64,000 nt of DNA from Kiritimatiellia bacterium (lineage in GTDB: Bacteria > Verrucomicrobiota > Kiritimatiellia > JAAZAB01). Below the pieces are notes generated by a model. It worked only from the letters and a program-made list of their open reading frames with translations. It did not search any database and was not told where the DNA came from. Positions within the stretch are counted from its first letter, which is position 1; each line of letters opens with the position of its first letter. Shown in pieces: positions 10,334 to 15,127 of this stretch. Position numbers and translations under genes: made by a program. The stretch covers positions 1 through 64,000 of the forward strand of contig JAXGPF010000005.1 of the NCBI GenBank assembly GCA_040767085.1, read 5' to 3'.

Positions 10334-10730
10334 ATCTATGCACATGCTGAACGTCACAAAGCAAGGATTTGAGCGGCAACGCGCAAACATCATACGTTTG
10401 CTTGAGCCAGTATTAAATTCTCGGACGACGTGGAAGTTGTCCCTACGGAATGATAACGCAAGCAGTTTTGAAATTGGTTCACCAATCTGCAATCCTGCAA
10501 ATCCGTCCAAATCCCGGTGACTGCCTCACCAACGTCCATATAAAATTCAGGCCGCTGTTGAACATGGCTTCCGTATCACCGGCTGGCGGTCAAGCAGGCT
10601 GCCGCCTCCGCCAGTTATTACCCGATATGTATTTTCACTTGCTCCGGCAAGTTACCCTGGCAAAGCAACGGAAAACCCCAATAGTTCCAGTGAATCACCT
10701 AAGATTGCCTGATAGACTCTGTTAACTGGA

Positions 10731-10771
10731 GAACCGTGAACCGCTTTAACCGTGAACCGTGCAACCGGAAC
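10731..10771. repeat. Degenerate tandem heptamer repeat (GAACCGT)n
   Basis: GAACCGT GAACCGC tt TAACCGT GAACCGT GCAACCG GAAC directly after the stop of 10775..11473. Confidence 0.7.
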
Positions 10772-10774
10772 TTC

Positions 10775-11473
10775 TCATCTTTTGCACAAATATGTCCCGA
10801 TGGCGCCTTCTGCCATCTCTTTGGACAGAACCCGGAAGCCGGCTCTTTGAAGCAGGCCGTCCAGAATCCAGTCGAAGGTCGAAAACTCCTCCCGGACATG
10901 CGTTGCAATTTCATCGCGAAGCTGCGCCCCGCCCATTCCGCCCAGCTTATCTATCCAGCGCGCGATGTTGGTCTCGACGTCAACCGGATCGAAGATCACG
11001 TCGTGGATGTACAAAAGCCCGCCGGGCTTGAGCAGGCCGTGCATCCGCGCCAGGGCTATGCCCTTCCAGAAATCCGGCAAATGGTGGAGGGCCATGCTGG
11101 TTACAATCGCATCTGCCGGAGCGCCTTTATGCTCGTACGTCAGGAAACCAGCGTGGCAACAGACGATGTTCTTGAGCCCCGTATTTTCCGCCCGCTGCCG
11201 GAGATATTCCAGCATGGGTTGGGAAACATCCACGGCGTAAACGCCGGCACAGCGCTGCGCCGCATGGACGGCAAAAGCGCCGGTGCCCGCGCCGAATTCT
11301 ATCACGACCGACTGCGGCGTGACGGCCAGCGCATCAAGGATGCGGATGCATTCGGCCGGCGCGTCGCGAAACCGGGCATGGCGGGCATCGTAGGCGGCAA
11401 CCGCCGCGGTATCCGCATAATCCACGCCGACCTGCCGGTATTCATCATATTGCCATGTTGTCCGCATGTTCAT
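10775..11473 (-). CDS. Class I SAM-dependent methyltransferase
   Basis: VIEFGAGTG, AVDVSQPML, ALHHLPD and LKPGGLLYIHD. Confidence 0.9.
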   Translation of the reverse strand: MNMRTTWQYDEYRQVGVDYADTAAVAAYDARHARFRDAPAECIRILDALAVTPQSVVIEFGAGTGAFAVHAAQRCAGVYAVDVSQPMLEYLRQRAENTGLKNIVCCHAGFLTYEHKGAPADAIVTSMALHHLPDFWKGIALARMHGLLKPGGLLYIHDVIFDPVDVETNIARWIDKLGGMGGAQLRDEIATHVREEFSTFDWILDGLLQRAGFRVLSKEMAEGAIGTYLCKR

Positions 11474-11476
11474 TTT

Positions 11477-12052
11477 CTAATCCAACTTGATCCCCGCATC
11501 CCTCCGGATGGATTCAATATCGAGGTCGGCGATCCAGGCTGGCAGATTCTGCCAGACTTCGTGGAAACCGAATCCGCCCTGGATCATCTCCCGGAGTGCT
11601 TCCTCTTTCGTCCAGCCCTGGACGGCGACACGGTACAGCGCGCACATGGCGCCGGTTCGATCGGCGCCATGTTGACAGTGGACGAGGACGGGGGTGCGTT
11701 TGGGGTCGGTGACAATCTGAAGAAACCGGACAATCTCCTTCCGTTCCGGGTGCCACGCCTTCATGTAGATGTGTTCGTATCCCAGTCCTGTCGCGCCGAT
11801 TTCGTCCCGATCGGAGTGAAAAGACCGGAGATTCACGATCGTCAAAACGCCCTGCTGCTTGAGGTTCCGCATGCCCTGCGCGGTGGGCTGGGCGCTGCGG
11901 TAGAGGCTGGCGCTGACTGCATGCAGGTTGGAAACGCCCTCCAGCGTCAAGGGTTGCGCCCATGCTGCCGGCCGGCCGGCAGGCACCTCCCCGGCCATTG
12001 TGGCGCTCGCGAGCATGAATCCTAACCAGATGTTTTCTAAGATCAGGGTCAC
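11477..12052 (-). CDS. Dual-specificity/protein-tyrosine phosphatase family protein, probably secreted; 5' end overlaps the transposon inverted repeat
   Basis: LYRSAQP, IVNLR and the P-loop VLVHCQHGADRTG (CX5R). Confidence 0.88.
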   Translation of the reverse strand: MTLILENIWLGFMLASATMAGEVPAGRPAAWAQPLTLEGVSNLHAVSASLYRSAQPTAQGMRNLKQQGVLTIVNLRSFHSDRDEIGATGLGYEHIYMKAWHPERKEIVRFLQIVTDPKRTPVLVHCQHGADRTGAMCALYRVAVQGWTKEEALREMIQGGFGFHEVWQNLPAWIADLDIESIRRDAGIKLD

Positions 12053-13212
12053 ACCTAAATTTAAAACTTAATTTTCACTCCTGGCCCCACATTGGTTGCC
12101 GGTTGCAGCATGCGATCTACTTCCGCAACCATGCCTTTCAGTTGCCGGTCAGATCCTAACAATCCAGCCATCTTCCTCAACTGGCGGCCCACCGCAGCGC
12201 CGCTCCCCATCCCCAACACCGCCGCCGCCTCGCGTTGCGTTAATCCGGCATGCTTGCAGAGACATCGCGCCGCCACCCCGCGCAATACCGAATTCCGCCG
12301 ACGCTGGCGGAAACATTCCTCCTGCGTTTCAAACACTTTCGATAAAACTGCCAAAACCGTCGTTTTATCCACAGCATTTCTGATATTCCTAAAACGAGCA
12401 TCTTTCGGCTGCCGGCTTTCCGCCACTCGCTTTTGATACAGCCCGTCCACCCACGCGCAGAATCTTTCGCCGCCTATGCCGTGCGGCGACGCTTTCAGCG
12501 CCGCCATCATACGTTCATCCCCTGTCGAACAGCCCACCTCAACAAATTTCCGGTAACGTCCAGCACAAAGACGACGATTTGCGCTCATCTCCGTCAAAAT
12601 CGGTTCATATTCCACAAATTTAAACGCATTGGCCTTACCGACATAACCCGGATAGCTGCTCCATGGATACGCCCGCAGATATCGCAACCGATCCGCCACT
12701 GACTTCTTTCGCAGCGCCCCAACCCGCACCGGATTCAAGTGGACATACCGTGAAAGCGCCAGTAGATAAGCATCGCCATCAACCAGTTTCGCCTTATAAC
12801 GGCCATCAAACAAATGCCCATGCCGATGGTGGCGCAAGTTGAAATAAACCGTGTAGGCCGTCAAAAGCGACTGCATGAATCTTGAGCAATTCCCGGCCGG
12901 GGTCTCGAACACCAAGTGAACATGGTTAACCATCAAAACAAACACATACAGCCGGATGTTGTACTCCTCCACACGCGTCGCTAGACGTTCCAGGAAACGC
13001 GTGCGATCCGCATCATCGAGGAACAGGCGGTTATGCAGCAGCCAACTTGAGTCGCCATCGGTTCCCGGCGCAGGTGTCTCTCCCAGCATCCGGGCCATAA
13101 CGTGGTAAATGGCCCCTTTAAATTCAATCCTTAATTGTCGTGCCATACACTCAATACTGCATATTTTTGCGAATTTTCGAAATATATTATCTTTTAAATT
13201 TAGGTGTGACCC
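12046..13212 (-). mobile_element. 1167-bp Y1/RAYT-like element bounded by perfect 21-bp inverted repeats
   Basis: GGGTCACACCTAAATTTAAAA (12046-12066) is the exact reverse complement of TTTTAAATTTAGGTGTGACCC (13192-13212); no flanking direct repeat. Confidence 0.85.
12061..13146 (-). CDS. HUH/Y1 (REP-associated tyrosine-type) transposase with C-terminal HTH
   Basis: MARQLRIEFKGAIYHV, HUH motif VLMVNHVHL, GHLFDGRYK, RYVHLNPVR, YPWSSY; C-terminal GLTQREAAAVLG HTH. Confidence 0.9.
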   Translation of the reverse strand: MARQLRIEFKGAIYHVMARMLGETPAPGTDGDSSWLLHNRLFLDDADRTRFLERLATRVEEYNIRLYVFVLMVNHVHLVFETPAGNCSRFMQSLLTAYTVYFNLRHHRHGHLFDGRYKAKLVDGDAYLLALSRYVHLNPVRVGALRKKSVADRLRYLRAYPWSSYPGYVGKANAFKFVEYEPILTEMSANRRLCAGRYRKFVEVGCSTGDERMMAALKASPHGIGGERFCAWVDGLYQKRVAESRQPKDARFRNIRNAVDKTTVLAVLSKVFETQEECFRQRRRNSVLRGVAARCLCKHAGLTQREAAAVLGMGSGAAVGRQLRKMAGLLGSDRQLKGMVAEVDRMLQPATNVGPGVKIKF

Positions 13213-15127
13213 CGGATGTAGCTGTAACCCGCGAAAGCATGGCCTGCCCGTCCAGGCGTAGCGCGCCATCCATGGGATAATCCACCGCGAACCAGATGCT
13301 GTATGCCCCGGGCGGCAGCGCCATGTCCTGCACGAGGATGATCGGCGCCAAATTTCGCAAAGCCCCCTGGAATGCCGGACGGCAGTTGGCCGGGTTGCCG
13401 TCAAACGGCGTCCAGGCCAGCCGATCGTTGCAATAAAACCAGAGCCCGGCATCATGCGCATACGCCGCCACCCACCAGTCCACCTGTATGCCGGCATAGG
13501 GTTCGACATGCAGCATGCTCACGGCCAGCGTCAAGGGATCGCCGGCGCCCAGGCAAACACCATCCCCGGCCAAGCCATTAACCGTGACCAGCGGCCCGAC
13601 CGGCGCCAGCGTATCCAGGCGCAAGGCGCAGGCGGTGGCGGCAGGAGCAACGACGGACAGGAAGTAAGTGCCGGTCGCCGGGCATACCCAGTCCAGTTGG
13701 TTCATACTCCAATTGGGCGCGCCGGAATTGGCCGCCGGCGCCAGGCCCAACGACACATCGGCCGCGGCGCAATCGGCGGTGACGCGGTAATAGACGCCGG
13801 CACGAGCGGCCAGGGCGAACCGTTGCACGGCGTCGGGAGCCAGGTTGACGTTGGTCGCGGCGCCCGGCGAAAGCACCGGCATTCTCGGATATCCCAGCGC
13901 CTCGGTTGCGCTGATCGCCGCCGCCAGCAAAGCCTGACCGCATTGGGTAAATGAATCCGGCCCGGACTCATCCCAAAACGGCAGGCAAACCGTCACCGAC
14001 ACCTCCGTATCGGGATTGTAGGCCATCAGCGAAAGATATCCCAGGGTAGCGCCGGTATGGCCGAATCCTATGTCCAGCATGTACGCGCAGCCGCAGCCGT
14101 AATTGGCGTTGTGGGGCGCCGTGTTGGTTTGCATGAAACGGACCATCTGCGCATCGAGGATGTTTTCGCCCCGCATCATGGTGCGGATGTAGCGGTTGAG
14201 CGCGGCCAGGGTGCCGTAGCCATTGCCCTCGGCGACATTCGCGCTGATGTTGGCGTTGGAAGTGATCAGCGTCGCCCCGCCGGGCCGATATTGGACTCCC
14301 GGCACGAACGGCGCCGGCAAGGCCGTGTCCGCGGCCAGGCATGGAAAGCGTATGGCGGCCAAAGGCACAGTGGCATTCCCGCCAACTACTTGCTCGTGCA
14401 GATAATCGGAATAAGTTTTGGGCGCGCCGCAATAAAGCGAATAAACCCGGGCGATGATTTCACCAAGGATGGTGTAACCGGTATCGCTGTAATGATAATT
14501 CCGGTCCGGGGCGAAAAACTCCAGGCGGTGCAGGGCAACCTGCCCGACCAGCTCGGCGGCGGTAAACTGGTGTTCCGGCTCCAGGTCCAGGCGGTATGTG
14601 ACGTAGGGATCGCCGCCGCAGCCTGGGACGGGATCGTTATCCACATCATAGACGCCGGCGCTGTGCCGGAGCAGTTGCGCGATGGTGATCTCGTTCTTGT
14701 GCGGGATGTTCCAGTTGGTGTCGGCGGGGAGGTAAGGGATGCTGCTGCCAGGAATACTGTTCGTGATTTTGGCATGGATGTCCAGCAGGCCCTGGCGCTG
14801 CAGGCGCAGGATGGCCGCGGCGGTGAAATTCTTGGTATTGCTGGCAAACCGGAAAGTGGTGTCGGGAGTCAGAGCCTGATCCGGGGCAGCCGCCGAGGAG
14901 GCGAAAAAAGTCTCATTGGAAGTTTCCAGGAATACGCTCAGCGACGGCACGGGAACGCCCAAGGCAGTTTCCAGGCCCAGGCGCACGGCATGCACCGCGT
15001 TGCTGACTTTTTCCGCCGGCGCGGGCGTGGCCGCGCGCGCGCCGCCGCAGACGCACCCAACCGCCGCCAGCGCCGCCACATAATGCGAGGCACGACAAAA
15101 GCAGATTCCCCTGGCAATCCAATGCAT
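13187..15127 (-). CDS. Secreted serine hydrolase (beta-lactamase/D-Ala-D-Ala peptidase fold) with extra C-terminal domains
   Basis: FRFASNTK (SxxK), LLRHSAG, YHYSDTGY and FGHTG; the 3' end runs into the transposon inverted repeat. Confidence 0.85.
   Translation of the reverse strand: MHWIARGICFCRASHYVAALAAVGCVCGGARAATPAPAEKVSNAVHAVRLGLETALGVPVPSLSVFLETSNETFFASSAAAPDQALTPDTTFRFASNTKNFTAAAILRLQRQGLLDIHAKITNSIPGSSIPYLPADTNWNIPHKNEITIAQLLRHSAGVYDVDNDPVPGCGGDPYVTYRLDLEPEHQFTAAELVGQVALHRLEFFAPDRNYHYSDTGYTILGEIIARVYSLYCGAPKTYSDYLHEQVVGGNATVPLAAIRFPCLAADTALPAPFVPGVQYRPGGATLITSNANISANVAEGNGYGTLAALNRYIRTMMRGENILDAQMVRFMQTNTAPHNANYGCGCAYMLDIGFGHTGATLGYLSLMAYNPDTEVSVTVCLPFWDESGPDSFTQCGQALLAAAISATEALGYPRMPVLSPGAATNVNLAPDAVQRFALAARAGVYYRVTADCAAADVSLGLAPAANSGAPNWSMNQLDWVCPATGTYFLSVVAPAATACALRLDTLAPVGPLVTVNGLAGDGVCLGAGDPLTLAVSMLHVEPYAGIQVDWWVAAYAHDAGLWFYCNDRLAWTPFDGNPANCRPAFQGALRNLAPIILVQDMALPPGAYSIWFAVDYPMDGALRLDGQAMLSRVTATSGVTPKFKR

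Follow-up and report, generated by a model that had tools for sequence, protein, structure and literature searches.

Within the first 64,000 nucleotides of contig JAXGPF010000005.1 from a Kiritimatiellia bacterium (assembly GCA_040767085.1; this whole 64-kb stretch is called the window), a gene for an HUH/Y1 tyrosine transposase is tightly enclosed by two terminal inverted repeats (TIRs). We show here that this cassette (12046..13213, minus strand) is a TIRtron and that its gene is a TIRYT, a kind that corresponds to TnpA-Y1 subclass 2.1 and to Group 1 of the RAYTs (tyrosine transposases that are associated with repetitive extragenic palindromes, REPs). A preliminary description of this DNA had proposed a distinct class of Y1 element; the element is indeed distinct, but it is not new, since the class was described as TIRYTs and TIRtrons in 2013 and as subclass 2.1 in 2018, and the window adds a member from a large clade of the PVC (Planctomycetes, Verrucomicrobia and Chlamydiae) group. 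Taken as a whole, our reading is that the cassette is a TIRtron whose enzyme cuts and rejoins single-stranded DNA (ssDNA) at the G-runs of its arms, and that it forms a discrete, low-copy, occasionally moving unit with recombinogenic ends; we regard this as probable. It does not behave as a high-copy insertion sequence (IS).

Identification of the element as a TIRtron

The cassette measures 1167-1168 bp and consists, in gene order, of an arm, a 45-bp leader, the TIRYT gene and a second arm. As the preliminary description had stated, its ends are exact 21-bp inverted repeats, GGGTCACACCTAAATTTAAAA, at 12046-12066 on the plus strand and 13192-13212 on the minus strand, and arm pairing reaches 27 nt at 93% through imperfect extensions to 12072 and 13186. 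The gene-upstream arm (13192..13213, minus strand) reads GGGGTCACACCTAAATTTAAAA on the gene strand and carries a fourth G, seen as C at 13213. The gene-downstream arm (12046..12066, plus strand) holds the stop codon: the open reading frame (ORF) runs on the minus strand from an ATG at 13146 to a final codon ending at 12064, and its TAA (12061-12063) falls inside the repeat, as first reported. Between the upstream arm and the ATG lies the leader (13147..13191, minus strand). When up to three mismatches were allowed, the 21-bp arm had only two matches in the 64 kb, both of them the cassette ends, and none of 100 shuffled sequences gave two matches. Solitary arms, or arms resembling a miniature inverted-repeat transposable element (MITE), were found nowhere else in the window. 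The cassette also differs in composition from its surroundings, with a G+C content of 0.48-0.57 versus 0.60-0.68 in the flanks.

These features can be compared with published accounts. Di Nocera, De Gregorio and Rocco (2013; BMC Genomics 14:522; PMC3733652) described RAYT-like genes flanked by long TIRs instead of REPs, and coined the names TIRYT for the proteins and TIRtron for the units. GGGGWSAS is common to some of those TIRs, which are placed roughly equally far from the gene; TIRs may overlap the 3' end of the gene, and they form dimers, clusters and moderately abundant families (PMC3733652). Quentin, Siguier, Chandler and Fichant (2018; PMC6006769) placed 20 of the 26 described TIRYTs in TnpA-Y1 subclass 2.1, with an HUH motif of NHVH or NH[YF]H and a Y motif of YIELNP or Y[IV]HLNP (their Table 1). 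According to the same account, subclass 2.1 proteins have C termini like Bac_DnaA_C, HTH_23 or HTH_28 and no REP nearby, the subclass is equated with what Bertels et al. (2017; PMC5581495) called RAYT Group 1, and it occurs in 14.9% of strains (PMC6006769 Table 1).

The window element agrees with these descriptions in every defining feature that was tested. Its product is a RAYT-like Y1 enzyme that has both the HUH motif and the catalytic tyrosine, and in place of REP hairpins its ends carry inverted repeats, exact over 21 bp and imperfect over 27 nt. Its upstream arm begins GGGGTCAC, which fits GGGGWSAS, while its downstream arm begins GGGTCAC and thus has three Gs. The distance between TIR and gene is conserved, the TIR overlaps the 3' end of the gene, and clusters of extra arms occur in relatives. 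In the same way, NHVH and YVHLNP fit the motif signatures of subclass 2.1/Group 1, the C-terminal domain is DnaA-like by fold (by Pfam it gives sub-threshold matches only), and no REP lies near the gene: inverted-repeat analysis of the locus reported no REP-like palindromes beside it. Nor do the arms themselves contain hairpins; the ends are inverted repeats only.

The sequences immediately outside the arms are ACAGCTACATCC and TGATCTTAGAAA. No target-site duplication is present at these flanks, as had been noted before, and across 50 elements the lengths of direct repeats at paired flanks equal those of re-paired flanks, so that no target duplication beyond chance is seen in the family either.

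Conservation of the arms across relatives

More than 3,300 protein relatives were found at E <= 0.001 among 8,000 candidates scored. The best 120 share 52-78% identity over nearly their full length; the named ones among them belong to Verrucomicrobia and Lentisphaerae, and many are found on short contigs of 1.1-1.5 kb. A scan of species-representative genomes returned 519 loci, of which the best 80 were kept (loci are designated L001 and so on). The gene was recognized by a motif rule in 79 of these 80, L047 having failed the rule. The source genome is absent from the 80, and the best match is L001, at 78% identity.

The preliminary description had proposed homologues as the place to look for conserved inverted repeats, and they are conserved. 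Upstream of the start, 62 of 67 testable loci have the arm core GGTCANNCC within 140 nt. Around the stop it is present in 56 of the 70 that could be tested, and 47 of 60 testable loci, from several phyla, carry it on both sides; control windows of the same size contained it in 11 of 1699 cases. Its placement is equally regular. In most loci the ATG follows the start of the left core by 56-67 nt (65 in the window), and the right arm ends 2-44 nt past the stop (14 in the window), often covering it. In the right arms of relatives, TTA or CTA, the stop codon of the gene strand, stands at the same arm position as the stop in the window. The arm consensus reads GGGGTCAGCCCTT, after which comes an A/T-rich part that is specific to the lineage; the arms of the window and of its nearest relative L001 read GGGGTCACACC, those of relatives mostly GGGGTCAG, and the start motif across the family is GGGGTCA(G/C). 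The arms are thus a family trait of the Y1 gene.

The two arms of one element also co-evolve. Inner-arm identity is 0.755 within elements versus 0.467 between them, a value that none of 2000 re-pairings reached. In the window, the arms match each other at positions where both L001 arms differ from them and from one another.

The terminal motif extends well beyond the close relatives. On the Sporomusa termitida plasmid pSPTER (27438-29065; L081), a homologue at 28% protein identity, annotated 'transposase', is enclosed by 34-nt imperfect inverted repeats that start GGGGTCAGGCC, the right one overlapping the end of the gene; the motif therefore reaches beyond the PVC group. At a homologue on a Skermanella plasmid such arms were not found, only a nearby palindrome.

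Several further patterns were noticed at the arm ends. The three bases outside the G-run, at 98 arm ends, are biased to A-T-[A/T] against a background of about 57% G+C: ATT is found at 15 of the 98, and AT followed by T, A or C at 28. This bias could be a target preference or a mark of the true termini. The inverted repeat extends at least 4 nt past the G-run in 7 of 50 elements, compared with 1.3% of re-paired flanks. In the left arms of 51 elements, a conserved hexamer like TTTACA/TTGAC lies some 24-30 nt in from the tip, and the spacing to the ATG is constant at about 57 nt. Judged from sequence, the hexamer and the ATG spacing suggest a promoter inside the arm, with a leader that is very short or absent, and since the left arm has the hexamer and the right arm the stop codon, arm binding could also regulate the gene.

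In the window itself, the promoter of the TIRYT gene is presumed to lie in the 45-bp leader or in the arm. A promoter scan gave a single sigma-70-like match (13210..13181), which is at chance level (1 found, 0.8 expected), and a terminator scan of the locus gave none. Rfam searches of 11800-13500 at E up to 1 returned one weak match to an unrelated small RNA outside the element, and PADLOC defence models gave no match.

Domain architecture of the TIRYT protein

The TIRYT gene (P0001; 12061..13146, minus strand) encodes 361 amino acids plus a stop. Pfam identifies it as Y1_Tnp above the cut-off (E 1.8e-9), and the two motifs named in the preliminary description are borne out: the HUH motif NHVHL at residues 74-78 (12913-12927, minus strand) and the catalytic-tyrosine motif YVHLNP at residues 134-139 (12730-12747, minus strand), both read from the translation. 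H75, H77 and Y134 are invariant in 110 family sequences, for which the consensus motifs are NHFH and YVHLNP, and all 27 columns that are invariant across these 110 members are kept in the window protein. Comparison with the L001 copy gives a dN/dS (ratio of nonsynonymous to synonymous divergence) of 0.24, and the gene is under purifying selection. A sequence search of the Protein Data Bank (PDB) with the protein returned no matches at E up to 1.

For structural comparison we used AlphaFold2. An alignment of 26 close sequences gave a predicted local distance difference test score (pLDDT) of 55, which was unusable, and the 110-sequence alignment gave a pLDDT of 86 and was used. In Foldseek searches against PDB, the catalytic domain (approximately residues 1-150; 12697..13146, minus strand) matched best to 4er8_A, the Escherichia coli REP-associated tyrosine transposase with a REP hairpin (E 3.7e-5, template modeling (TM) score of 0.72 on the target); the TnpA structures of IS608 and ISDra2 came next. 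Residues of approximately 256-352 (12091..12381, minus strand), modeled with a pLDDT of 84-94, superpose on 3pvp_A, the DNA-binding domain IV of Mycobacterium tuberculosis DnaA on box DNA, with a TM score of 0.81 on the target and a root-mean-square deviation of 1.8 Å over 94 columns. By sequence, the C-terminal part of 26 members gave only sub-threshold Pfam matches (Xre-like-HTH in two, HTH_23 in two and Sigma70_r4 in one) and no Bac_DnaA_C, so the helix-turn-helix (HTH) tail proposed in the preliminary description draws its support from the predicted fold. The model shows a three-part protein with a predicted HUH/Y1 domain of the ssDNA nuclease-ligase type, a helical middle and a predicted DnaA domain-IV-like domain of the duplex-binding type. 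A homodimer prediction with two copies scored 0.00 and is uninformative either way.

Signs of mobility and scars at the element ends

Where elements of different genomes are compared, DNA similarity sets in at one arm and is lost at the other. Two pairs of closely similar elements were found in different contexts. Over 906 nt, the L044 copy, from a Terrimicrobiaceae bin, and the L078 copy, from an Akkermansia bin, share 99.8% identity; their upstream flanks are unrelated, and the L078 element interrupts a reverse-transcriptase-like ORF, recognized by eye from its motifs. The L054 copy, from a Chloroflexi bin, shares 93% identity over 1091 nt with the L063 copy, from a Planctomycetota bin, again in unrelated flanks. 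The members of each pair come from bins of different families or phyla, for both of which a binning error is possible. In L054, another sequence stands in place of the left arm's tip, and a second copy of the right end lies about 110 nt downstream.

Contigs end inside the gene or within 300 nt of it in 32 of 79 loci. Such breaks, like the contigs of 1.1-1.5 kb among the protein relatives, would follow from repetition of the element in the populations sampled, because repeats break assemblies. Two to three loci occur in each of ten genome bins among the best 80 of 519; these copies are diverged (e.g., 75% and 84%), and bins collapse identical repeats. Few solitary arms were present in about 400 kb of relatives' flanks, so no large dispersed repeat family is evident.

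The ends themselves carry scars. Exact tandem duplications of at least 10 nt span the junction of flank and arm at 24 of 97 arm ends, compared with 11 of 2000 random flank positions and 9 of 743 GGGG positions. Their period is 8-35 nt, and the duplicated unit joins a piece of flank to the element's first 0-21 bases. Examples affect both ends in L003, L023, L046 and L063, and others are found in L006, L012, L018, L045, L048, L050, L069, L070 and L076. In addition, arrays of extra arms in the same orientation lie beside the gene in L013, L037, L035, L020, L032, L004, L080 and L078. L013 has six left arms upstream of 3001, all in the same orientation and 369 to 57 nt before the ATG, and in L078 the whole left end is duplicated in tandem, over 56 bp.

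In the published view, as given in PMC6006769, movement of TIRYTs is without evidence, and the literature we searched gave no account of junction scars or of TIRYT activity. The junction duplications, the copies in different contexts and the flank differences that end at the arms go beyond the published accounts found. Bertels et al. (2017) counted Groups 1 and 6 as the most IS-like of the RAYT groups, and reported for Group 1 that 6.3% were near-identical duplicates and that 1.2% of members were on plasmids (PMC5581495).

Neighboring genes and the syntenic locus L001

Upstream of the cassette lies a gene for a Beta-lactamase-family protein of 646 amino acids (13187..15127, minus strand; Pfam PF00144), the last eight codons and stop of which are supplied by the arm. 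The protein ends ...VTATSGVTPKFKR, with GVTPKFKR as the eight arm-encoded residues; its three closest relatives end ...VTATVGR, ...VTATVGR and ...VAVGH. Downstream is a gene for a dual-specificity/tyrosine phosphatase-family protein (11477..12016, minus strand; assigned by Pfam). Its likely ATG, at 12016, is 30 nt from the arm, and the context of this ATG is conserved in L001.

Positions 10705-13859 of the window are syntenic with L001, and the flanking genes share 88-90% DNA identity. Similarity of the element begins exactly at 13213 and ends exactly at 12046. L001 has an extra 2.29 kb between the element and the upstream flank that encodes a transglutaminase-like protein and a small ORF, and on the downstream side of the element it has an extra 0.54 kb; neither stretch has a counterpart anywhere in the 64-kb window. 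Homology between the two loci breaks off 5 nt beyond one arm end and 12 nt beyond the other, and it is as a result of these breaks beside the arms that the 646-aa neighbor in the window ends in eight arm-encoded residues. The element has a synonymous divergence (dS) of 0.57 from L001, and the three flanking genes have dS values of 0.26-0.30. Either the window and L001 copies are not simple orthologues, or the element changes faster at silent sites.

Directly past the right arm of L001 (4100-4170) are three to four units of 15 nt, in each of which the last bases of the arm are joined to 7 nt of flank; two degenerate copies come after them. A second 'left arm' in L001 (2778-2934) was rejected; it lies across a run of N with the same 55 nt on both sides, and is probably a scaffolding or masking artefact.

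Proposed mechanism

For TIRtrons we propose the following series of events. The HUH/tyrosine domain would act on single strands, cutting and rejoining them at the G-run on each arm's outer edge. Inverted arms would give each strand the same 5' end and the same 3' end, and because of this either strand could serve as the substrate. In ssDNA, the arms may pair as a panhandle that juxtaposes the two cleavage sites and supplies a duplex that the DnaA-like domain could hold. Bound to the arms in their normal double-stranded form, the DnaA-like domain could also autoregulate the gene. The panhandle and the binding of the inverted repeats by the HTH were both suggested in the preliminary description, and both ideas are compatible with the co-evolution of the arms, the panhandle in the predicted single-strand folds and the duplex-binding type of the modeled C-terminal domain.

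This proposal draws on the better known IS608-type enzymes, which use a single-strand circle pathway. In these enzymes, the protein becomes linked to the 5' side of the cut and a 3'-OH is left. If a TIRYT behaved in this manner, a cut at the 3' edge of an arm that was aborted and followed by extension and resealing would duplicate the flank together with a few terminal bases, a pattern like that of the junction scars.

A stronger form of the proposal is that TIRtrons are active today by a strand-symmetric, single-strand 'peel and paste', with the panhandle held by the DnaA-like domain. Under this scheme, a nick would be made in each strand at the arm's 3' edge, and the enzyme would remain linked to the flank; on abortion, the free 3'-OH would be extended and the nick resealed. 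Aborted events of this type would leave tandem duplications, arrays of arms and losses of flank that end within about 12 nt of the arms. We put this stronger form forward tentatively, as a possibility that is open to considerable doubt.

Alternative explanations

Several points weigh against our reading of the cassette as an occasionally moving unit that is processed as single strands. The window has a single copy, with no further arm within 64 kb, and this copy is without a junction duplication. The junction duplications of relatives could also have arisen by replication slippage at a bound protein. Copies within one bin are diverged (75% for L001 versus L004), as in domesticated RAYTs, an argument that is tempered by the collapse of identical copies in bin assemblies. 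The window and L001 copies lie between the same two genes in the same orientation, which fits vertical inheritance of a resident gene. As the arms are not hairpins, the known mode of substrate recognition by Y1 enzymes has no obvious counterpart here. The published consensus of the flanking repeats, GGGG[AT][CG]A[CG], is unlike that of the DnaA box (PMC6006769). The 21-bp panhandle does appear in both the minimum-energy and the centroid fold of the single strand, but perfect repeats produce such pairing by construction. Finally, no biochemical or functional study of any TIRYT was found in the literature searched, including that from 2018 onward.

Some of these points could also be explained if the TIRYT were a domesticated, immobile host gene that is inherited vertically, as has been suggested for RAYTs; its arms would then serve as operators or as sites of binding, or would have seeded a dispersed family of TIR repeats maintained by the gene. 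Along with the single copy and the shared position between the Beta-lactamase-family and phosphatase genes, the purifying selection on the gene is in keeping with this explanation, as are the low copy number and diverged intragenomic copies published for subclass 2.1/Group 1 (PMC6006769, PMC5581495) and the clustering of extra arms beside genes, which recalls the TIR families of Di Nocera et al. (PMC3733652). The dS of the element, however, is about twice that of the flanking genes, which argues against simple co-inheritance, and near-identical copies lie in unrelated flanks, one of them inside another ORF. Further points against domestication are the 93%-identical pair from bins of different phyla, the clustering of contig breaks at the element, its G+C content below that of the flanks, and the scarcity of solitary arms in the relatives' flanks. 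We therefore consider it unlikely, while treating it as a serious contender.

A classical cut-and-paste IS working on duplex DNA would have its HTH bind the TIRs in double-stranded DNA and would be cut and integrated in a DDE-like manner, with the HUH domain acting just as a nuclease. The layout is certainly IS-like, with TIRs of 20-38 bp, one gene and an arm beside the presumed promoter, and the C-terminal domain is of a duplex-binding type. Against this, target-site duplications are lacking in the window and in the 50 elements compared, Pfam finds no DDE or other duplex-transposase domain in the window protein or in 26 family members, and the catalytic domain is, by sequence and fold, that of enzymes reported to work on single strands. 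We find this explanation highly improbable.

That the repeats are a chance match, or part of a MITE or DDE IS that happens to host the Y1 gene, has a negligible probability: the shuffled sequences never gave the pair, the ORF list holds no other transposase between the arms, the plasmid homologue at 28% identity has such arms as well, and the arm core stands at fixed distances from homologues in several phyla, which excludes the DDE or MITE origin that the preliminary description had named as the case against it.

Implications for the TIRYT family

TIRYTs (subclass 2.1/Group 1) are among the largest groups of Y1 HUH enzymes. Comparison within the family yields testable handles on their activity, namely G-run termini, co-evolving arms, junction scars and near-identical copies elsewhere, and the scars at the ends across the family, together with the copies in different contexts, outweigh the window member itself in value. 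From the aligned arms and ends, the comparison may also supply a concrete substrate design for a first biochemical test of TIRYTs. The arms suggest that HUH enzymes may have a third means of recognizing their ends, in addition to hairpins and REPs, and such a mode would be of interest for work on HUH tags and single-strand DNA tools.

Comparison with known HUH/Y1 systems

The window element differs from the published accounts of TIRYTs in its size and perhaps also in its clade. Its clade comprises bins of Verrucomicrobiota, Lentisphaerota, Kiritimatiellia and Planctomycetota, while the taxonomic emphasis in the published account of subclass 2.1 is on proteobacteria (PMC6006769). 'Verrucomicrobia' is not named in the main text of that paper, and in two of its supplementary files the PVC names and 'TIR' have 0 occurrences. 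Proteins of the window clade have 361 amino acids, and the window protein has a helical middle domain; the published median for subclass 2.1 is 238 amino acids.

The preliminary description had set the element apart from both REP-flanked RAYTs and the IS200/IS605 family, and this separation holds, given the Y---NP motif and the absence of hairpins and REPs. Among known structures, TnpA-REP of the E. coli REPtron (PDB 4er8; Messing et al. 2012, Ton-Hoang et al. 2012) has the closest catalytic-domain fold, and its gene is likewise reported to be bracketed by its own recognition sequences in inverted orientation. In contrast to the REPtron, the window arms are not GTAG-tagged REP hairpins, the protein has an additional DnaA-like domain by its predicted fold, and no high-copy dispersed repeat is evident for the arms. 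Assignment to the strict RAYTs (TnpA-REP) was rejected: REPs are absent at the gene, the window has no further arm, and the protein scores 46.3 bits against NCBIfam REP_Tyr_transpos, below the cut-off of 80.

With IS200/IS605 (the TnpA of IS608 and ISDra2), the window element shares the HUH/Y1 fold and the lack of target-site duplication. Membership in this family was also rejected, as its Y motif is Y---Q and that of the window protein is Y---NP (YVHLNP), its ends are subterminal hairpins and not terminal inverted repeats, and its TnpA has about 150 amino acids, so that the window protein, at 361, is over twice as long. Intragenomic copies of the IS200 type are 99.4% identical (PMC6006769 Table 1), whereas copy number in the window family appears to be low. 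By analogy with these enzymes, IS200/IS605-like chemistry on single strands is likely for TIRYT.

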